DNA of 64,000 nt from Mobula hypostoma (lineage: Eukaryota). A program made the translations under genes and the position numbers. The stretch is taken from positions 45,136,001-45,200,000 of the forward strand of contig NC_086112.1 of the NCBI RefSeq assembly GCF_963921235.1, written 5' to 3'. Below the pieces are notes generated by a model. That model was not told the origin of the DNA and ran no database searches. It saw only the letters and a program-made list of their open reading frames with translations. How positions within the stretch are numbered: the stretch's first letter is position 1; every line of letters starts with the position of its first letter. Below are positions 3,501-43,257 of the stretch, piece after piece.

Positions 3501-5090
3501 TAGGAGATCGTGTGTTCATATCTCCTCGGCTTGATGCCCATAGCTGGGTTCCTGAGAGGTCAGTCACTGCAGCTGAAGATCTGAATTCCAAACAGCAGAG
3601 TCACCAACGAGACATGTGGCCTCAAAATTCTGTCAGGTTGGACAGCTTTCTTGTGAGGTAAGAAATTCCAATCCGGGACTTAATGAGCAACCCATCCAGT
3701 TCTTGGATTTCTTTCAGGGTCTTCAACATGTCTGATGCATGAACACAAAGAGGCAGTTATATTTGTACAGTGGTGCCCAGTGCAGCTGTGTGTCATCGCT
3801 CACAGATAGCACAGACACTGAATGTCCCATGTGCACCACTGGAAAACAGCATCACATAGACACACTGTAAGTGACGCAAAGCATTTACACCATGACAATT
3901 CTCCATTGCGTTGGGCCAAGCCTAGTCTCCACAGTCCAAAATTTCCCCAAATCAGTCGTCGCCCCAGACACCCTCATAGCTCGCCACTAAGTCACTACAT
4001 TAACAATGGAGTCTGACTTAGAAGCATCCACTCATAATGCCATGGATGGTAATTTCACTCCTGCCAAGCACGTACAACTCCAACACCCTAGCCTAACCCT
4101 GAAGATTCTGTTCCGGCTCTGCCTAATGTCCTGAACCTCCCTGCATCCTCTAAGCTTTCCTACACCATGAGCAAACTCTATTCTCCTCTGGCATTGCAAT
4201 GTGAGTGAAGGAAGAGCCATTGAGGGGTTAACTGAGAAAGTCCCATTCTACTGCACACAACAGCTTTGATCTCATGAATTTTGAAGTGGCGAACCTGCAA
4301 AACAAGTCGGCTCATCATACACCACACTGTAAGGTTCTCTTACAGGAGTTGAGTCACTTTTGATATCCACAGTAATCAGTCTGGATTCATTCCTCTGTTC
4401 ACCAGTATTATTTGAGCACATGCAAGGAGGCTACCCAGATACGCAGTTCCACAATGGCTTAAACTCATACAATCATTATTCTACCATAAGCATAATAACA
4501 TGTGTTACCAGGCTCAATGACTGCATCTATCCCACCATTATAAAACTCCTGAATGGACCTCTCAAATACATGTCAAAATGAACTTCTGACCTCACCATCT
4601 ACTTCGAGATGACCTTGCACTTTATTTGTCTACCTGCTTTGCACTTTCTCTGTTACTGTAACATTATAAAACCGTAAGACATAGGAGCACAATTAGGCCA
4701 CCTGGACCATTGAATCTGCTCAACAATTCCATCGTGGCTGATTTATTTTCCCTCTTAACCTTATTCTCCTGCCTGTTCCCTATAACCTTTAGCACCCTGA
4801 TTAATCAAGAACCTATCAAACTCTGCCTTACATGTACCCAATGACTTGGCCTGCTCAGCCGTCTGTGGCAATGAATTCCACATCAAAAGTGCCTCATATG
4901 TTAACCCCTTCATTCCTGGGATCATTCTCATGAACCTCCTCTGGATCCTCTCTCCAATGTCAGCACATCTTTTCTTAGACGAAGAACCCAAAACTGCTCA
5001 CAATACTCCAAGTGCTGACCAACGCTTTAACAAGCCTCAGCACTACATTCTTGCTCTTGTATTCTAGTCCACTCAACATGAGTAACATTG

Positions 5091-7182
5091 ACCCCACTAA
5101 GGAGCACCAGGCTATTGTCTCCCACACCATCACTGACTTTATCCACTCAGGGGATCTCCCATCCACTACTACCAACCTTATAGTTCCCACACCCCGCACT
5201 TCCCGTTTCTACCTCCTACCCAAGATCCACAAACCTGCCTGTCCTGGCCGACCTATTGTCTCAGCTTGCTCCTGCCCCACCGAACTCATTTCTGCATACC
5301 TCGACACGGTTTCATCCCCCGTTGTTCAATCGCATCCTACCTATGTTCGTGACTCTTCTCACGCTCTGAAACTTTTCGATGATTTTAAGGTCCCTGGCCC
5401 CCACCGCTTTATTTTCACCATGGATGTCCAGTCCCTATATACTTCCATCCCCCATCAGGAAGGTCTCAAAGCTCTCCGCTTCTTTTTGGATTCCAGATCT
5501 AATCAGTTCCCCTCTACCACCACTCTGCTCCGTTTAGCGGAATTAGTGCTTACTCTTAATAATTTCTCTTTTGGCTCCTCCCACTTCCTCTAATCTAAAG
5601 GGGTAGCTATGGGCACCCGTATGGGTCCTAGCTATGCCTGCCTTTTTGTTGGCTTTGTGGAACACTCTATGTTCCGAACCTATTCTGGTATCCGTCCCCC
5701 ACTTTTCCTTTGCTACATCGACGACTGCATTGGCGCTGCTTCCTGCATGCATGCTGAGCTCGTTGACTTTATTAACTTTGCCTCCAACTTTCACCCTGCC
5801 CTCAAGTTTACCTGATCCATTTCTGACACCTCCCTCCCCTTTCTAGATCTTTCTGTCTCTGTCTCTGGAGACAGCTTATCCACTGATGTCTACTATAAGC
5901 CTACTGACTCTCACAGCTATCTGGACTATTCCTCTTCTCACCCTGTCTCTTGCAAAAATGCCATCCCCTTCTCGCAATTCCTCCGTTTCCGCCGCATCTG
6001 CTCTCAGGATGAGGCTTTTCATTCCAGGACGAGGGAGATGTCCTCCTTTTTTAAAGAAAGGGGCTTCCCTTCCTCCACTATCAACTCTGCTCTCAAACGC
6101 ATCTCCCCCATTTCACGCGCATCTGCTCTCACTCCATCTTCCCGCCACCCCACTAGGAATAGGGTTCCCCTGGTCCTCACCTACCACCCCACCAGCCTCC
6201 GGGTCCAACATATTATTCTCCATAACTTCCGCCACCTCCAACGGGATCCCACCACTAAGCATATCTTTCCCTACCCCCCCCCCGCTTTCCGCAAGGATCA
6301 CTTGCTACGCAAATCCCTTGTCCATTCGTCCCCTCCATCTCTCCCCATTGATCTCCCTCCTGGCACTTATCCTTGTAAGCAGAACAAGTGCTACACATGC
6401 CCTTACACTTCCTCCCTTACCACCATTCAGGGCCCCAGACAGTCCTTCCAGGTGAGGCGACACTTCACCTGTGAGTCGGCTGGGGTGATATACTGCGTCC
6501 GGTGCTCCCGATGTGGCCTTCTATATATTGGCGAGGCCCGACGCAGACTGGGAGACCGTTTTGCTGAACACCTACGCTCTGTCCACCAGAGAAAGCAGGA
6601 TCTCCCAGTGGCCACACATTTTAATTCCACATCCCATTCCCATTCTGACATGTCTATCCACGGCCTCCTCTACTGTAAAGATGAAGCCACACTCAGGTTA
6701 GAGGAACAACACCTTATATTCCATCTGGGTAGCCTCCAACCTGATGGCATGAACATTGACTTCTCTAACTTCCACTAATGCCCCACCTCCCCCTCGTACC
6801 CCATCCGTTATTTATCTTTATACACACATTCTTTCTCTCTCTCTCCTTTTTCTCCCTCTGTCCCTCTGAATATACCCCTTGCCCATCCTCTGGGTTTCCC
6901 CCCCCCCGCCCACTTTTCCTTCTCCCTGGGCCTCCTGTCTCATGATCCTCTCATATCCCTTTTGCCAATCACCTGTCCAGCTCTTTGCTCTATCTCTCTC
7001 CCTCCTGTCTTCTCCTATCATTTTGGATCTCCCCCTCCCCCTCCCACTTTCAAATCTCTTACTAGCTCTTCCTTCAGTTAGTCCTGACGAAGGGTTTCGG
7101 CCTGAAACGTCGACTGTACCTCTTCACCAGCAACTTTGATGTGTGTTGCTTGAATTTCCAGCATCTGCAGAATTCCTCGTGT
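5091..7182 (+). mobile_element. Penelope-like retroelement (RT + GIY-YIG endonuclease), 5'-truncated, two nonsense codons
   Basis: One frame 5091-6778: FYLLPKIHK, FTMDVQSLYTSIP, MGTRMGPSYA, YIDD, then VIYCVRCSRCGLLYIGE (GIY-YIG); stops at 5591 and 5813; imperfect 8-bp TSD taaca[t/c]tg (5083-5090 / 7183-7190). Confidence 0.92.
7080..7115 (+). ncRNA. Minimal type-I hammerhead ribozyme motif in Penelope 3' region
   Basis: AGTC-CTGACGA-AGG(gtttcgg)CCT-GAAAC-GTC|GACT: stem I AGTC/GACT, both core boxes, stem II; stem III reduced to the palindromic ACGT. Confidence 0.75.
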
Positions 7183-13269: not shown

Positions 13270-15929
13270 AACTGAAGGAAGAGTGAATAACGGATTTGAA
13301 AGTTGGAGGGGGAGGGGGAGATCCAAAATGATAGGAGAAGACAGGAGGGGGAGGGATGGAGCCAAGAGCTGGACAGGAGATAGGCAAAAGGGGATACGAG
13401 CGGTTCATGGGACAGGAGGTCTGGGAAGAAAGACAAGTGGGGAGGGACCCAGAGGATGGGCAAGAGGTATATTCAGAGGGACAGAGGGAGAAAAAGGAGA
13501 GTGAGAGAAAGAATGTGTGCATAAAAATAAGTAACAGATGGGGTACGAGGGGGAGGTGGGGCCTTAGCGGAAGTTAGAGAAGTCGATGTTCATGCCATCA
13601 GGTTGGAGGTTACCCAGACGGAATATAAGGTGTTGTTCCTCCAACCTGAGTGTGGCTTCATCTTTACAGTAGAGGAGGCCGTGGATAGACATGTCAGAAT
13701 GGGAATGGGATGTGGAATTAAAATGTGTGGCCACTGGGAGATCCTGCTTTCTCTGGCGGACAGAGCATAGATGTTCAGCAAAGCGGTCTCCCAGTCTGTG
13801 TCGGGTCTCGCCAATATATAAAAGGCTACATCGGGAGCACCGGACACAGTATATCACCCCAGTCGACTCACAGGTGAAGTGTTGCCTCACCTGGAAGGAC
13901 TGTTTGGGGCCCTGAATGGTGGTAAGGGAGGAAGTGTAAGGGCATGTGTAGCACTTGTTCTGCTTACACGGATAAGTGCCAGGAGGGAGATCAGTGGGGA
14001 GGGATGGGAGGGGACGAATGGACAAGGGAGTTGCGTAGGGAGCGATCCCTGCGGAATGCAGGGGGGGGGGGAGGGAAAGATGTGCTTAGTGGTAGGATCC
14101 CGTTGGAGGTGGCGGAAGTTACGGAGAATAATATGTTGGACCCGGAGGCTGGTGGGGTGTAGGTGAGGACCAGGGGAACCCTATTCCTAGTGGGGTGGTG
14201 GGAGGATGGAGTGAGAGCAGATGTACGTGAAATGGGGGAGATGCGTTTAAGAGCAGAGTTGATACTGGAGGAAGGGAAGCCCTTCAGTTCCTAATCTAAT
14301 CAGAACCTTCAGAACCTAATCAGTTCCCCTCTACCACCACTCTGCTCCGTTGACCTAATCAGTTCCCATCTACCACCACTCTGCTCCGCCTAGCGGAATT
14401 AGTCCTTACTCTTAATAATTTCTCCTTTGGCTCCTCCCACTTCCTCCAAACTAAAGGTGTAGCTATGGGCACCCATATGGGTCCTAGCTACGCCTGCCTT
14501 TTTGTTGGGTTTGTGGAACAATCTATGTTCCGTGCCTATTCTGGTATCTGTCCCCCACTTTTCCTTCGCTACATCGACGACTGCATTGGCGCTGCTTCCT
14601 GCACGCATGCTGAGCTCGTTGACTTTATTAACTTTGCCTCCAACTTTCACCCTGCCCTCAAGTTTACCTGGTCCATTTCCGACACTGTCCTCCCCTTTCT
14701 AGATCTTTCTGTCTCTGTCTCTGGAGACAGCTTATCCACTGATGTCTACTATAAGCCTACTGACTCTCACAGCTATCTGGACTATTCCTCTTCTCACCCT
14801 GTCTCTTGCAAAAACGCCATCCCCCTCTCGCAATTCCTCCGTCTCCGCCGCATCTGCTCTCAGGATGAGGCTTTTCATTCTAGGACGAGGGAGATATCTT
14901 CCTTTTTTAAAGAAAGGGGCTTCCCTTCCTCCACTATCAACTCTGCTCTTAAACGCATCTCCCCCATTTCACGTACATCTGCTCTCACTCCATCCTCCCA
15001 CCACGCCACTAGGAATAGGGTTCCCCTGGTCATCACCTACCACCCCACCAGCCTCCGGGTCCAACATATTATTCTCCGTAACTTCCGCCACCTCCAACGG
15101 AATCCCACCACTAAGCACATCTTTCCCTCCCCCCCCCCTGCATTCCGCAGGGATCGCTCCCTACGCAACTCCCTTGTCCATTCGTCCCCTCCCATTCCTC
15201 CCCACTGATCTCCCTCCTGGCACTTATCCGTGTAAGCAGAACAAGTGCTACACATGCCCTTACACTTCCTCCCTTACCACCATTCAGGGCCCCAAACAGT
15301 CCTTCCAGGTGAGGCAACACTTCACCTGTGAGTCGACTGGGGTGAGATACTGCGTCCGGTGCTCCCGATGTGGCCTTTTATATATTGGCGAGACCCGACG
15401 CAGACTGGGAGACCGCTTTGCTGAACATCTACGCTCTGTCCACCAGAGAAAGCAGGATCTCCCAGTGGCCACACATTTTAATTCCACATCCCATTCCCAT
15501 TCTGACATGTCTATCCACAGCCTCCTCTACTGTAAAGATGAAGCCACACTCAGGTTGGAGGAACAACACCTTATATTCCGTCTGGGTAACCTCCAACCTG
15601 ATGGCATGAACATCGACTTCTCTAACTTCCGCTAAGGCCCCACCTCCCCCTCGTACCCCATCTGTTACTTATTTTTATGCACACATTCTTTCTCTCACTC
15701 TCCTTTTTCTCCCTCTGTCCCTCTGAATATACCTCTTGCCCATCCTCTGGGTCCCCCCCCACTTGTCTTTCTTCCCGGACCTCCTGTCCCATGAACCGCT
15801 CCTATCCCCTTTTGCCTATCACCCGTCCAGCTCTCGGCTCCATCCCTCCCCCTCCTGTCTTCTCCTATCATTTTGGATCTCCCCCTCCCCCTCCCACTTT
15901 CAAATCTATTACTAACTCTTCCTTCAGTT

Positions 15930-23027: not shown

Positions 23028-26000
23028 GACCATAAGACCAAGGAGCAGAAGTCGGCCATTTGGCCCATCGAGTCTGCTCCGCCATCTTAGCATGAGCTGA
23101 TCCATTCTCCCATTTAGTCCCACTCCCCTGCCTTCTCACCATAACCTTTGATGCCCTGGCTACTCAGATACCTATCAATCTCTGCCCTAAATACACCCAA
23201 TGACTTGGCCTCCACTGCTGCCCGTGGCAACAAATTCCATAGATTCACCACCTTCTAGCTAAAAAAATTTCTTTGCATTTCTGTTCTGAATGGGCGCCCT
23301 TCAATCCTTAAGTCATGCCCTCTCGTACTAGACTTCCCATCATGGGAAACAACTTTGCCACATCTACTCTGTCCATGCCTTTCAACATTCGAAATCTTTC
23401 TATGAGGTCTCCCCTCATTCTTCTAAACTCCAAGGAATACAGTCCAAGAGCGGACAAACATTGCTCATATGTTAACCCTCTCATTCCCAGAATCATTTTA
23501 TTGAATCTTCTCTGTACCCTCTCCAACGTCAGCACATCCTTTCTCAAATAAGGAGACCAAACTGCCCACAGTACTCCAAGTGAGGTCTCACCAGCGCCTT
23601 ATAGAGCCTCACATCCCTGCTCCTATACTCTATTCCTCCAGAAATGAATGCCAACATTGCATTTGCCTTCTTCACCACCGACTCAACCTAGAGGTTAACC
23701 TTAAGGGTATCCTGTACGAGGACTCCCAAGTCCCGTTGCATCTTAGACCTTTCAATTCTCTCCCCACTTAAATAATAGTCTGCCCGTTTATTTCTTCTGC
23801 CAAAGTGCATAACCATACACTTTCCAACATTGTATTTCATTTGCCACTTCTTTGCCCATTCTTCCAATCTATCCAGGTCTCTCTGCAGACTCTCCGTTTC
23901 CTCAGCACTACCAGCCCCTCCACCTATCTTCATATCGTCAGCAAACTTAGCCACAAAGCCATCTATTCCATAATCCCAATCGTTGATGTACAATGTAAAA
24001 AGAAGTGGCCCCAACACAGACCCCTGTGGAACACCACTGGTGACTGGCAGCCAACCAGAATAGGATCCCCTTATTCCCACTCTCTGTTTCCAGCCAATCA
24101 GCCAACGCTCTATCCACATATGTAACTTTCCCATTATTCCATGGGCTCTTATCTTGTTAAGTAGCCTCATGTGTGGCACCTTGTCAAAGGCCTTCTGAAA
24201 ATCCAAGTATACAACATCCACTGCATCTCCCTTGTCTAGCCTACTGGTAATTTCCTCAAAAAATTGTAATAGGTTTGTCAGGCAGGATTTTCCTTTAAGG
24301 AATCCATGCTGAGTTCTGCCTATCTTGTCACATGCCTCCAGGTACTCCGTAACCTCATCCTTGACAATGGACTCCAACAACTTCCCAACTGCCAATGTCA
24401 AGCTAACAGGTCTATAATTTCCTTTTGCTTCCTTGCCCCCTTCTTAAATAGTGGAGTGACATTTGCAATCTTCACTTTTCAAAAAAGGAGGGAGAGAGAA
24501 ACCGGGGAATTATAGGCCGGTTAGCCTAACGTCGGTGGTGGGGAAACTGCTGGAGTCAGTTATCAAGGATGTGATAACAGCACATTTGGAAAGCGGTGAA
24601 ATGATCGGACAAAGTCAGCATGGATTTGTGAAAGGAAAATCATGTCTGATGAATCTCATAGAATTTTTTGAGGATGTAACTAGTAGAGTGGATAGGGGAG
24701 AACCAGTGGATGTGGTATATTTGGATTTTCAAAAGGCTTTTGACAAGGTCCCACACAGGAGATTAGTGTGCAAACTTAAAGCACACGGTATTGGGGGTAA
24801 GGTATTGGTGTGGGTGGAGAATTGGTTAGCAGACAGGAAGCAAAGAGTGGGAATAAACGGGACCTTTTCAGAATGGCAGGCGGTGACTAGTGGGGTACCG
24901 CAAGGCTCGGTGCTGGGACCCCAGTTGTTTACAATATATATTAATGACTTGGATGAGGGAATTAAATGCAGCATCTCCAAGTTTGCGGATGACACGAAGC
25001 TGGGTGGCAGTGTCAGCAGTGAGGAGGATGCTAAGAGGATGCAGGGTGACTTGGATAGGTTGGGTGAGTGGGCAAACTCATGGCAGATGCAATTTAATGT
25101 GGATAAATGTGAAGTTATCCGCTTTGGTGGCAAAAATAGGAAAACAGATTATTATCTGAATGGTGGCCGATTAGGAAAAGGGGAGGTGCAACGAGACCTG
25201 GGTGTCATTATACACCAGTCATTGAAAGTGGGCACGCAGGTACAGCAGGCGGTGAAAAAGGCGAACGGTATGCTGGCATTTATAGCGAGAGGATTCGAGT
25301 ACAGGAGCAGGAAGGTACTACTGCAGTTGTACAAGGCCTTGGTGAGACCACACCTGGAGTATTGTGTGCAGTTTTGGTCCCCTAATCTGAGGAAAGACAT
25401 CTTTGCCATAGAGGGAGTACAAAGAAGGTTCACCAGATTGATTCCTGGGATGGCAGGTCTTTCATACGAAGAAAGACTGGATGAACTGGGCTTGTACTCG
25501 TTGGAATTTAGAAGATTGAGGGGGGATCTGATTGAAACGTATAAGATCCTAAAGGGATTGGACAGGCTAGATGCGGGAAGATTGTTCCCGATGTTGGGGA
25601 GGTCCAGAACGAGGGGTCACAGTTTGAGGATAGAGGGGAAGCCTTTTAGGACCGAGATTAGGAAAAACTTCACACAGAGAGTGGTGAATCTGTGGAATTC
25701 TCTGCCACAGCAAACTGTTGAGGCCAGTTCATTGGCTATGTTTAAGAGGGAGTTAGATATGGCCCTTGTGGCTACAGGGGTCAGGGGGTATGGAGGGAAG
25801 GCTGGGGCGGGGTTCTGAGTTGGATGATCAGCCATGATCATAATAAATGGCGGTGCAGGCTCCAAGGGCCGAATGGCCTACTCCTGCACCTATTTTCTAT
25901 GTTTCTATGTTTCCAGTCCTCCGGAACCATGCCAAAATCTATCGACTTTTGAAAGATCATCGCTAATGCCTCCGCAATCTCCACAGCTACTTCCTTCAGT

Positions 26001-38010: not shown

Positions 38011-39367
38011 AAACTGATATAGAGACAGGCACTAACAACAAGATATGTCACAATGAATTTTAAGTGCCTGTTTCAAACAAAATTATGACACTTTTAAATT
38101 CTTGCAGCCCTATTTGTCACCTCCATTATTTGTTGGAGTTCCGTTATTGCCTTGAAGAAAAATTACCCATCAGCAGATTTCCAAATGAAATCAAGGAATA
38201 CAATCAAAAGTTATTTCAAATATACTTACATTTGTTAAGGAATAAACATAGTTATCCAAAGATAAATAGTGAAAACAAAATCTTTCCCTAGTGGATTGGG
38301 AAAAGTGAATATAACAATTGAGATTATTGCTTCCAGCTGAGTGCGATATTAATGAATGGTGGGAACCCGTTCCCAGAGTTGTTTTAACATAGGTATACTG
38401 TGGATATATTCTTAATTGTATTTTTATTCTTGTACTTTTGCATAAACTAATTGGCATAGAAATCATTTATACAGCTCGACCATTCCATGCCAACATTTAT
38501 TCCCCTCAGGCCTTTGCCCATCTTTCCTTTCCCAATCCACCATCATCCTATTTCCTTCTCCTTTCATTGTTTATTTAGCTTCTCCTAACAGCAACTGTAC
38601 AGTTTTCCTTTAATCAGTCCGTGTCCAGGTGAATTCCATATTTTTACCACTCTCTTCATTATTCTAGGCATCACTGACGAGGCCGGTGTGTTGTCTTCCC
38701 GACTACCATAGGAAAGGGAATGGTAAGCCACCTTCCTGAACCACAGCATTGCTTCCGCTGAAGGTACTCCCAGGGTTTATACTTGGCAATGATCAAGAAA
38801 ATGCGGTATGGTTCCAAGTCAGTCTGGCGTATGACTTGGAGGGGAACATGCTGGTATCTGTGTTCCCATGGACCTAATGCCCTTTCATTCTTATGGTAGT
38901 CCTCAGAGATTGGTGAGATGCTGCCAGAGGAGCCTGGATGAATAACTGTGATGCATTTTATAGGAGGTATACCCCGCGGTCATACCCTGAACTCTGATAG
39001 TGAAGGAAATTAAAGTTTTGGATGATATATGTAATGAAAATCAAGCAGCCCGCTCTGTCCTGGATATTACAAAATTTCTGGGATGTTTTTGGAACTAAAC
39101 TCATTAAGGCAAGAGGACTGTATTTCTTCACACCTGATTTTCTGTTTTGTAGGTGGTGGGAAGTGCTTCATTTCTGATCTGCTCTTAAGTCCACAGTAGT
39201 TGTTCAACTGGGTCAGATGCCTTTCTGCTTAATGGTAATCCCAAGAAATTGATTGTGGAAAACTCAGTAATAGAAACATAGAAACATAGAAAATAGGTGC
39301 AGGAGTAGGCCATTCGGCCCTTCGAGCCTACACCGCCATTTATTATGATCATGGCTGATCATCCAAC

Positions 39368-42300
39368 TCAGAACCCAGCCTTCCCTCCATACCCCCTGAC
39401 CCCTGTAGCCACAAGGGCCATATCTAACTTCCTTTTAAACATAGCTAATGAACTGGCCTCAACAGTTTGCTGTGGCAGAGAATTCCACAGATTCACCGCT
39501 CTCTGTGTGAAGAAGTTTTTCCTAATCTCGGTCCTAAAAGGCTTCCCCTCTATCCTCAAACTGTGACCCCTCGTTCTGGACTTCCCCAACATCGGGAACA
39601 ATCTTCCCGCATCCAGCCTGCCCAATCCCTTTAGGATCTTATACGTTTCAATCAGATCCCCCCTCAATCTTCTAAATTCCAACGAGTACAAGCCCAGTTC
39701 ATCCAGTCTTTCTTCATATGAAAGACCTGCCATCCCAGGAATCAATCTGGTGAACCTTCTTTGTACTCCCTCTATGGCAAGGATGTCTTTCCTCAGATTA
39801 GGGGACCAAAACTGCACACAATACTCCAGGTGTGGTCTCACCAAGGCCTTGTACAACTGCAGTAGTACCTCCCTGCTCCTGTACTCGAATCCTCTCGCTA
39901 TAAATGCCAGCATACCATTCGCCTTTTTCACCGCCTGCTGTACCTGCATGCCCACTTTCAATGACTGGTGTATAATGACACCCAGGTCTCGTTGCACCTC
40001 CCCTTTTCCTAATCAGCCACCATTCAGATAATAATCTGTTTTCCTATTTTTGCCACCAAAGTGGATAACTTCACATTTATCCACATTAAATTGCATATGC
40101 CATGAGTTTGCCCAGTCACCCAACCTATCCAAGTCACCCTGCATCCTCTTAGCATCCTCCTCACTGCTAACACTGCCACCCAGCTTCGTGTCATCCGCAA
40201 ACTTGGAGATGCTGCATTTAATTCCCTCATCCAAGTCATTAATATATATTGTAAACAACTGGGGTCCCAGCACTGAGCCTTGCGGTACCCCACTAGTCAC
40301 CGCCTGCCATTCTGAAAAGGTCCCGTTTATTCCCACTCTTTGCTTCCTGTCTGCTAACCAATTCTCCACCCACACCAATACCTTACCCCCAATACCGTGT
40401 GCTTTAAGTTTGCACACTAATCTCCTGTGTGGGACCTTGTCAAAAGCCTTTTGAGAATCCAAATATACCACATCCACTGGTTCTCCCCTATCCACTCTAC
40501 TAGTTACATCCTCAAAAAATTCTATGAGATTCGTCAGACATGATTTTCCTTTCACAAATCCATGCTGACTTTGTCCAATCATTTCACCGCTTTCCAAATG
40601 TGCTGTTATCACATCCTTGATAACTGACTCCAGCAGTTTCCCCACCACCGACGTTAGGCTAACCGGCCTATAATTCCCCGGTTTCTCTCTCCCTCCTTTT
40701 TTAAAAAGTGGGGTTACATTAGCCACCCTCCAATCCTCAGGAACTAGTCCAGAATCTAACGAGTTTTGAAAAATTATCACTAATGCATCCACTATTTCTT
40801 GGGCTACTTCCTTAAGCACTCTGGGATGCAGACCATCTGGCCCTGGGGATTTATCTGCCTTCAATCCCTTCAATTTACCTAACACCACTTCCCTACTAAC
40901 ATGTATTTCGCTCAGTTCCTCCATCTCACTGGACCCTCTGTCCTTTACTATTCCTGGAAGATTATTTATGTCCTCCTTAGTGAAGACAGAACCAAAGTAA
41001 TTATTCAATTGGTCTGCCATGTCCTTGCTCCCCATAATCAATTCACCTGTTTCTGTTTGCAGGGGACCTACATTTGTCTTTATCAGTCTTTTCCTTTTTA
41101 CATATCTATAAAAGCTTTTACAGTCCGTTTTTATGTTCTCTGCCAGTTTTCTCTCATAATCTTTTTTCCCCTTCCTAATTAAGCCCTTTGTCCTCCTCTG
41201 CTGAACTCTGAATTTCTCCCAGTCCTCAGGTGAGCCACTTTCTCTGGCTAATTTGTATGCTTCTTCTTTGGAATTGATACTATCCCTAATTTCTCTTGTC
41301 AGCCACGGGTGCACTATCTTCCTTGATTTATTCTTTTGCCAAACTGGGATGAACAATTGTTGTAGTTCATCCATGCAACCTTTAAATGCCTTCCATTGCA
41401 TATCCACCGTCAATCCTTTAAGTGTCATTTGCCAGTCTATCTTAGCTAATTCACGTCTCATACCTTCAAAGTTACCCCTCTTTAAGTTCAGAACCTTTGT
41501 TTCTGAATTAACTACATCACTCTCCATGTTAATGAAGAATTCCACCATATTATGGTCACTCTTACCCAAGGGGCCTCTCACGACAAGATCGCTAATTAAC
41601 CCTTCCTCATTGCTCAAAACCCAGTCCAGAATAGCCTGCTCTCTAGTCGGTTCCTCGACATGTTGGTTCAAAAAACCATCCCGCATACATTCCAAGAAAT
41701 CCTCTTCCTCAGCACCTTTACCAATTTGGTTCACCCAGTCTACATGTAGATTGAAGTCACCCATTATAACTGCTGTTCCTTTATTGCACACATTTCTAAT
41801 TTCCTGTTTAATACCATCTCCGACCTCACTACTACTGTTAGGTGGCCTGTACACAACTCCCACCAGCGTCTTCTGCCCCTTAGTGTTACGCAGCTCTACC
41901 CATATCGATTCCACATCTTCCCGGCTTATGTCCTTCCTTTCTATTGCGTTAATCTCTTTTTTAACCAGCAACGCCACCCCACCTCCCCTTCCTTCATGTC
42001 TATCCCTCCTGAATATTGAATATCCCTGAACGTTGAGCTCCCATCCCTGGTCACCCTGGAGCCATGTCTCTGTGATCCCAACTATATCATAATCATTAAT
42101 AACAATCTGCACTTTCAATTCATCCACCTTATTACGAATGCTCCTTGCATTGACACATAAAGCCTTCAGGCGCTCTTTTACAACTCTCTTAGCCCTTTTT
42201 AATGCTTGCCCTGGATTTGTCGGCCTGCCACTTTTACTTTTCCCCTTTGTACTTTTTGCTTCTATGCTCACTTTACACCCCTCTGTCTCTCTGCACTGGT

Positions 42301-42388
42301 TCCCATCCCTCTGTTGTGAACTAACCTCCTCACACCTAGCCTCTTTAATTTGATTCCCACCCCCCAACCATTCTAGTTTAAAGTCACC
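39368..42388 (-). pseudogene. CR1 ORF2 (APE endonuclease + RT), single CGA>TGA nonsense at 40013-40015
   Basis: NARS, ITETW, YRPP, GDFN, SDH (APE); QHGF, GVPQGS, FADD (RT); the sister copy reads GGC-CGA-TTA at ~25165; also YLDSQK in place of YLDFQK. Confidence 0.93.
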
Positions 42389-43257
42389 TCAGTAGCCCCC
42401 GCTAATCTCCCTGCCAGGATATTGGTCCCCCTAGGATTTAAGTGTAACCCGTCCTTTTTGTACAGGTCACACCTGCGCCAAAAGAGGTCCCAATGATCCA
42501 AAAACTTGAATCCCTGCCCCCTGCTCCAATCCCTCAGCCACGCATTTATCCTCCACCTCATCGCATTCCTACTCTCACTGTCGCGTGGCACAGGCAGTAA
42601 TCCCGAGATTACTACCTTTGCGGTCCTTTTTCTCAACTCCCTTCCTAGCTCCCTATATTCTTCTTTCAGGACCTCATCCCTATTCCTACCTATGTCATTG
42701 GTACCTATATGTACCAGGACCTCTGGCTCTTCACCCTCCCACTTCAGGATATCTTGGACACGATCAGAAATATCCCGGACCCTGGCACCAGGGAGGCAAA
42801 CTACCATCCGAGTCTCTGGACTGCGTCCACAGAATCGCCTATCTGACCCCCTTACTATCGAGTCCCCTATCACAACTGCCCTCCTCTTCCTTGCCCTACC
42901 CTTCTGAGCTACAGGGCCAGACTCTGTGCCGGAGGCAGGGCCACTGTCGCTTCCCCCGGGTAAGCTGTCCCCTCCAACAGTACTCAAACAGGAGTACCTG
43001 TTGTTAAGGGGCACAGCCGCCGGGGTACTCCCCATCACCTGCCTTTTCCCCTTCCCCCTCCTAACCGTGACCCACTTGTCTGCCTCCCGTGGCCCCGGCG
43101 TGACCACCTGCCTTCCACTCCTCTCTATCACCTCCTCGCTCTCCCTGACCAGACGAAGGTCATCGAGCTGCAGCTCCAGTTCCGTAACGCGGTCCCTTAG
43201 GAGCTGCATCTCGATGCACTTGGCGCAGATGTAGACGTCCGGGAGGCTTGGAGACTC
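42373..43257 (-). CDS. CR1 ORF1 (coiled coil + SGNH/GDSL esterase domain), 5'-truncated
   Basis: GDSIVRG, PGA, HIGTND and DGLHLN blocks; heptad region LRDRVTELELQLDDL. Confidence 0.9.
   Translation of the reverse strand, partial: ESPSLPDVYICAKCIEMQLLRDRVTELELQLDDLRLVRESEEVIERSGRQVVTPGPREADKWVTVRRGKGKRQVMGSTPAAVPLNNRYSCLSTVGGDSLPGGSDSGPASGTESGPVAQKGRARKRRAVVIGDSIVRGSDRRFCGRSPETRMVVCLPGARVRDISDRVQDILKWEGEEPEVLVHIGTNDIGRNRDEVLKEEYRELGRELRKRTAKVVISGLLPVPRDSESRNAMRWRINAWLRDWSRGQGFKFLDHWDLFWRRCDLYKKDGLHLNPRGTNILAGRLAGATEVTLN

Follow-up and report, generated by a model that had tools for sequence, protein, structure and literature searches.

In CR1 retrotransposons whose first open reading frame (ORF1) encodes an esterase, the second (ORF2) is likely to be produced by -1 programmed ribosomal frameshifting at a U_UUA_AAC heptamer placed at the very end of ORF1, as judged from comparative sequence analysis. 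Most ribosomes would terminate after Leu-Asn and release ORF1p, while a minority would slip back one base at the heptamer and continue into ORF2, with the predicted transframe peptide ...E-V-T-L-N-L-E-W-L-G-G-G-N-Q... The product would be an ORF1-esterase-APE-RT fusion of roughly 1,300 residues (the sum of 311 and about 1,000 codons), made in a low, constant proportion in the way that retroviruses make Gag-Pol. U_UUA_AAC is, together with G_GGA_AAC and A_AAA_AAC, among the most shift-prone heptamers (PMC5009743). An earlier note had suggested such a fusion from one element in the window, by which we mean the whole 64,000-nucleotide stretch of Mobula hypostoma DNA analysed; the suggestion gains support for the family, although the copy in the window would not itself be active.

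The element and its ORF1-ORF2 junction

The window element belongs to a young and numerous family of CR1-type LINEs in which ORF1 encodes an esterase; its features are as follows.

39271-43257, minus strand: CR1-type LINE copy of a young family, 5'-truncated and dead, from comparison of near-identical copies
42373-43257, minus strand: ORF1, its start lost in the window copy
42427-42873, minus strand: SGNH/GDSL esterase domain of ORF1 (Pfam PF13472, E 1.7e-16)
42389-42391, minus strand: TGA closing the -1 frame, two codons 5' of the heptamer
42376-42382, minus strand: U_UUA_AAC heptamer in X_XXY_YYZ phase with ORF1, the predicted site of the -1 slip
42373-42375, minus strand: ORF1 stop TAG, directly 3' of the heptamer
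42360-42365, minus strand: G6 run after a 10-nt spacer from the heptamer, candidate stimulator without local pairing
42345-42371, minus strand: out-of-frame 8-codon ORF 3' of the ORF1 stop, ATG at 42371
42152-42382, minus strand: linker between the heptamer and the APE Asn motif, 77 codons with the -1 frame open and no AUG
41552-42112, minus strand: APE endonuclease domain of ORF2 (Pfam PF03372, E 2e-12)
41762-41764, minus strand: earliest in-frame ATG in ORF2, codon 208, within the APE domain
40040-40693, minus strand: reverse transcriptase domain (Pfam PF00078, E 5.9e-33)
40013-40015, minus strand: nonsense codon in ORF2 of the window copy, beyond which the frame continues to 39368

Re-reading of the sequence confirmed the junction as first described in the earlier note. 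ORF1, whose C-terminus on the minus strand is ...E-V-T-L-N-stop, carries the heptamer (42382-42376) in X_XXY_YYZ phase with the stop adjacent, and the TGA at 42391-42389 leaves an ORF1/ORF2 overlap of 16 nt. Two further statements held: ORF2 has no in-frame AUG until 41764, past the endonuclease motif (codon 208, against codon 79, at 42151, for the APE Asn), and the AUG at 42371 is out of frame and opens an ORF of eight codons. No conserved role was seen for this small ORF, the ATG of which is absent from the junctions of the other 14 families described below. The -1 frame itself runs for 791 codons (42388-40013) and spans the APE and RT domains identified by Pfam; over the linker (42152-42382) it contains no stop, compared with 4 and 7 in the other two frames. 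The bare TTTAAAC occurs 21 times on the two strands of the window, being followed by TAA or TAG at two places and by a G5 run at one, so a lone heptamer means little and the evidence lies in its conservation.

The class features of a CR1-group LINE with an esterase ORF1 (type IV) are present, with an SGNH esterase in ORF1 and APE followed by RT in ORF2, and the closest named ORF1 protein is from a ray (98% identity). The provisional label CR1 follows the earlier note and the description in PMC13343379. Type IV is the CR1-group ORF1 class that contains an esterase (PMC4120745), and in cartilaginous fishes L2 elements are described as having no ORF1 and canonical CR1s as having the esterase (PMC13343379).

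The 5' edge at 43257 is common to 19 of 29 near-identical copies (99.0-99.6% identity), with one more ending at 43254, and short repeats form the 3' tail; in 12 of the 29 close copies ORF1 comprises 311 codons from an AUG. The truncation at 43257 and the nonsense codon at 40015-40013, a place which the sister copy within the window reads through (ORF 24460-25818), mean that the window copy is not itself active. A DNA search of the same genome with the window element as query gave 1245 first-look candidates, 40 of which were scored and 30 fetched, the window copy being one of the 30. Heptamer, stop and -1 phase are kept in all 30 of these closest copies; as they were picked by likeness and are about 99% identical, they show only that the junction is a trait of the family and not the result of decay.

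A family with a single fused ORF, which the earlier note had named as evidence against its own reading, did not come to light in a longer-protein search that was weak and gave three matches, all of them chimeric-looking gene models. Fused readings in five other proteins (P0029, P0051, P0095, P0220 and P0221) were rejected as fused families, since they look like single mutated copies or gene models entering the -1 frame. Two of them, P0029 and P0221, are annotated host gene models in which the reading leaves the esterase in the -1 frame (F-K-L) and enters the linker or APE.

Elsewhere in the window, a plus-strand 3' fragment of the same CR1 family (24473-25913, 97.7% identical) adjoins an older CR1-like RT fragment on the opposite strand (23318-24419). 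Several ORFs with RT-like and GIY-YIG-like motifs lie at 4979-6778 and 13564-15635 and are probably Penelope-like elements.

Conservation of the heptamer and of the reading phase

Divergent loci were retrieved from three sources: the same genome, searched with three divergent queries, metagenome contigs, which gave 20 loci, and genome contigs, which gave 17. One natural copy from each of 15 distinct families was aligned, the representatives being partly chosen for intactness. ORF1 identity among these families, which are related and include five that are mutually close (55-85%), ranges from 23 to 85% with a median of 36%, and the same codon is found in 695 of 1855 comparisons at four-fold sites. 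The alignment of junctions across families, proposed in the earlier note as a check, bore the heptamer out at the level of nucleotides: ORF1 ends in U_UUA_AAC and a stop in 14 of the 15 families and in another canonical heptamer, G_GGA_AAC, and a stop in the remaining one (L032). Here ORF1 ends CAG GGA AAC TAG with APE in the -1 frame, the swap being represented by this single DNA locus. The stop after the heptamer is TAA or TAG in 15/15 families. The terminal Leu codon is TTA in 14/14 and the Asn codon AAC in 15/15, and a T ends the codon before Leu in 14/14 families, even though that codon encodes eight different residues. At five conserved Leu columns of the same alignment the top codon accounts for only 29-50%, and AAC is used in 5/14 and 3/15 families at two conserved Asn columns. 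The fixation of TTA, AAC and the preceding T while the control columns vary therefore suggests a constraint on the nucleotides.

The protein record extends this pattern. Leu-Asn ends nearly all homologous ORF1s of a first search, from cartilaginous fishes and from far more distant sources, and stays terminal in homologues whose tails are 6-13 residues longer. Fifty-percent-identity representatives were then searched with an ORF1 query from which the last 17 residues had been removed to avoid bias towards the ending. Among the 150 matches listed, 110 reach the end of the esterase and 101 have a tail of 8-45 residues, ending in LN (45), GN (9), KN (1) or otherwise (46). All nine GN ends among the matches listed are preceded by Gln, whose codon can end in G, and 44 of the 45 LN ends by a residue for which a U-ending codon is possible (the other by Glu), which is what G_GGA_AAC and U_UUA_AAC, respectively, require. 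In a quick tree of the esterase domains from 98 of the 150 matches listed, with endings labelled by hand-made patterns set after the data had been seen, GN, LN, KN and FF/FL endings fall inside one clade (SH-aLRT 97).

Within the KN clade, proteins P0164 and P0220 hardly differ as far as ...R-T-K, after which P0164 stops 13 residues on and P0220 continues into the APE motif. Their tails can be fitted as frame 0 and frame -1 readings of the same nucleotides at 13 of 14 positions, compared with 4 of 13 for the +1 frame and a mean of 3.3 for shuffled controls (0/5000 as high), and the fit forces an A at the third position of Lys as well as a G5 run after a 10-nt spacer; the stop in this case lies 12 codons further on. 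This pair, known as protein only, points to A_AAA_AAC as the heptamer of a third clade; in the other KN tails the residues at the corresponding position are different. Seven further proteins (P0107, P0113, P0121, P0146, P0148, P0152 and P0201) have Phe-Leu or Phe-Phe at the junction position, endings that, at the level of protein, are compatible with U_UUU_UUA or U_UUU_UUC heptamers. A clade of eight (P0135, P0173, P0190, P0191, P0194, P0214, P0217 and P0187; SH-aLRT 98) has no heptamer-compatible ending and may be a lineage that reaches ORF2 by another route.

The frame of APE relative to the heptamer was scored wherever a locus had both an exact heptamer and a nearby APE start. It is -1 at 77 of 100 such loci, or 47 of 70 if the window family is excluded, with individual families contributing 30/30, 4/9, 16/23, 6/9, 10/13, 4/5 and 7/11; the tie in the oldest family (4 at -1, 4 at 0 and 1 at +1) is expected from indels in dead copies. 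Fourteen families, L090 and L032 among them, keep the phase; L101 is the single exception. The linker between heptamer and APE Asn measures 35, 39, 44, 52, 60, 67, 68, 72 or 77 codons, and in one family the heptamer is 105 codons from the APE start. That APE is still in the -1 frame behind such different linkers indicates that gains and losses in the linker have come as whole codons. In these families the stop that closes the -1 frame lies 1-17 codons 5' of the heptamer.

The absence of an ORF2 start codon is less general than the earlier note implied: it holds for the window family and for 8 of the 14 in-phase families, which have no AUG before the APE Asn, while 6/14 contain an in-frame AUG in the linker. 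The UUG at 42367, which the note had raised as a possible start, is replaced by CAG, AAG or AGG in other families, a CUG start is likewise not conserved, and no near-cognate codon, CUG included, is shared across families. The UAAUG stop-start is absent from the window and occurs, among exact-heptamer junctions, only in L136 and L137, which belong to one family.

A sister family (L135-L137) is about 90% identical to the window element from 42313 downstream (compared over 42313-41452) but only about 75% identical in ORF1, and near 42313-42295 there is an apparent remnant of an older junction with a shortened G run. The window family thus appears to have gained a new ORF1 together with its junction by in-frame recombination.

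Searches of other sequence collections were negative: four scans of viral contigs gave no loci, alignment of GN proteins to genome contigs found none, a plasmid search had no match, and an Rfam scan returned one chance match and nothing relevant.

The G run downstream of the heptamer

A run of 5-7 G residues starts 8 to 10 nucleotides after the heptamer in 14 of the 15 families, at exactly +10 in 12 of them, and L032 has four G at +12; the background is 90 in 15829 positions. In the -1 frame the run is covered by a G-ending codon (for four different residues), GGG and then mostly a G-starting codon, and as the residues encoded vary, the run is not a protein constraint. The earlier note had drawn attention to a G-rich tract with a possible TGGTT/AATCA stem. 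The tract was upheld in part, the conserved element being the G6 run at 42365-42360 with its 10-nt spacer, unpaired, whereas the stem is unsupported (z +0.90 for 46 nt, -0.16 for 90 nt).

A conserved stimulatory structure did not emerge either. Fold z-scores lie between -1.6 and +1.5 across the 15 families, none of which folds better than its shuffles, and neither these scores nor a search for pairing partners gave the stem-loop or pseudoknot 5-9 nt downstream that is expected of a canonical signal. A conserved intramolecular G-quadruplex was rejected because the two-tier pattern fits only 6/15 families. The C-rich codons of a C-L-P-G motif about 420 nt upstream are a plausible partner for the G run in families of the M. 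hypostoma genome, but this match is lost in L032, L035 and L118 and was rejected as a conserved feature; no long-range partner is shared among the 15 families, nor are downstream C runs.

The nearest parallel in position comes from PRRSV, where a short linear CCCANCUCC motif, bound by PCBP and nsp1-beta and located 11 nt 3' of the shift site, replaces RNA structure (PMC5009743). The first G of the CR1 run is likewise nucleotide 11 counted from the shift site. The resemblance is one of position only, the CR1 element being G-rich and the protein-bound PRRSV motif C-rich. On account of this match in position we favour a bound protein or direct contact with the ribosome, rather than a stem-loop or pseudoknot, as the way in which an unpaired G run could stimulate shifting, and we consider the chances that it does so about even. 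G-rich elements have also been placed behind the same UUUAAAC in reporters of G-quadruplex-stimulated -1 frameshifting, with an optimum spacer of 6-8 nt and four G3 tracts (PMC3919603), a design that differs from the CR1 junctions, only 6/15 of which match even a two-tier pattern.

Coronavirus and retrovirus signals use the same heptamers in the same phase to fuse an upstream ORF to a polymerase ORF (PMC5009743); CR1 differs in having a linear G run in place of a conserved downstream stem-loop or pairing partner. Judging from the junction sequences, the CR1 signal most likely works like the viral ones while departing from them in structure. More tentatively, and with somewhat less than even confidence, we propose that esterase-CR1 elements across animals make their RT as a Gag-Pol-like fusion driven by a previously undescribed stimulator. 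This stimulator would be the unpaired G run, set 10 nt beyond the slippery site and recognized by a host protein, ORF1p or the ribosome.

Other routes to ORF2 and related systems

Three other accounts of the junction are less favoured, and each leaves the heptamer swap and the phase lock unexplained. Termination-reinitiation as in SART1 or L1, in which ribosomes would resume in the -1 frame at a codon that may or may not be AUG and the motif would serve as a reinitiation signal, is improbable. It would be in keeping with the adjacent stop in 15/15 DNA families, with the UAAUG of L136 and L137 and the linker AUGs of 6/14 families, and it has precedents in the AUG-independent initiation of L1 ORF2 (PMC5009743) and the UAAUG of SART1 (PMC3894237). 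It does not, however, explain why XXX and the preceding base switch from U_UUA to G_GGA, or why phase is locked from the heptamer; the KN pair picks up the -1 frame at Lys-Asn, 12 codons before the stop, and the families have no start codon in common, UAAUG being present at only two of the junctions obtained.

A separate message for ORF2, arising by splicing or from an internal promoter or IRES with the heptamer incidental, we regard as very improbable. Although an IRES has been discussed as a possibility for non-LTR ORF2 (PMC3894237) and a donor-like sequence follows the stop in one family (L032), the alternation of TAG and TAA means that the stop is not a fixed splice acceptor, and such a message would predict neither codon-level conservation of the heptamer nor the phase lock. 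Sense-strand intron ends were seen in 0 of the 15 joints listed (15 of 52), a weak argument drawn from the contigs of four runs whose RNA status was guessed. Least probable of all, and already disfavoured, is protein constraint or plain inheritance, whereby Leu-Asn is required at the C-terminus of the esterase and brings its nucleotides with it. Terminal LN is indeed widespread and the families share ancestry, yet synonymous sites are saturated while TTA (14/14), AAC (15/15) and the preceding T (14/14) remain fixed, LN is still terminal behind the longer tails, and in other clades Leu is replaced by Gly or Lys.

Frameshifting, the reading we prefer, has counterparts among retroelements. The Dictyostelium elements TRE5-A and TRE3-A, LINEs with two ORFs, are said to need a -1 frameshift to reach ORF2 (PMC5911963); they differ from CR1 in being L1-clade APE-type elements with another type of ORF1, and the legend that says so gives neither heptamer nor stimulator (PMC5911963). 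Penelope-like elements have an optional ORF1, which can be set apart by a frameshift accompanied by a pseudoknot (PMC8557442), and esterase ORF1s also occur in Penelope elements (PMC3905857), but these belong to a different retroelement order, with a GIY-YIG endonuclease and the pseudoknot drawn. L1 and SART1 resemble CR1 in their bicistronic RNA and low ORF2 output (PMC5009743, PMC3894237); they make a separate ORF2p, whereas in CR1 the overlap of the two ORFs contains a slippery site, with ORF2 in the -1 frame, and the window family has no start codon. Paramecium LINEs may use a +1 shift or reinitiation (PMC5405496).

Our literature search found no paper that describes frameshifting or a slippery site where the CR1 ORFs meet; mention of the overlap may exist in the original accounts of CR1, in Repbase reports or in supplements. 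The word frameshift does not occur in the available portions of a 2026 CR1 survey (PMC13343379), the esterase structure paper (PMC3905857), the amniote CR1 paper (PMC4316615) or the ORF1 survey (PMC4120745).

The CR1 group is described as the dominant retrotransposon in most vertebrate species (PMC13343379), and the translation of LINE ORF2 is called an open and important question (PMC3894237); given a conserved -1 site, a reporter of 120 nt can put it to the test. If frameshifting is the route, the real enzyme would be an esterase-APE-RT fusion, so that ORF2 annotations beginning at a downstream AUG would be wrong and engineered CR1 vectors would need the junction. A very widespread, chromosomally encoded frameshift signal would also be added to those known, possibly with a structure-free G-run stimulator. 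The UAAUG directly after the heptamer in L136 and L137 offers a natural test case for reinitiation against frameshifting.

As to the sources of the loci, those numbered L111-L125 are CR1-type elements, 12 of the 17 genome-contig loci sit in one bacterial MAG, and one matching protein (P0017) is named as a Pseudomonas protein, which suggests that these MAG loci and P0017 are animal host DNA in prokaryotic assemblies.
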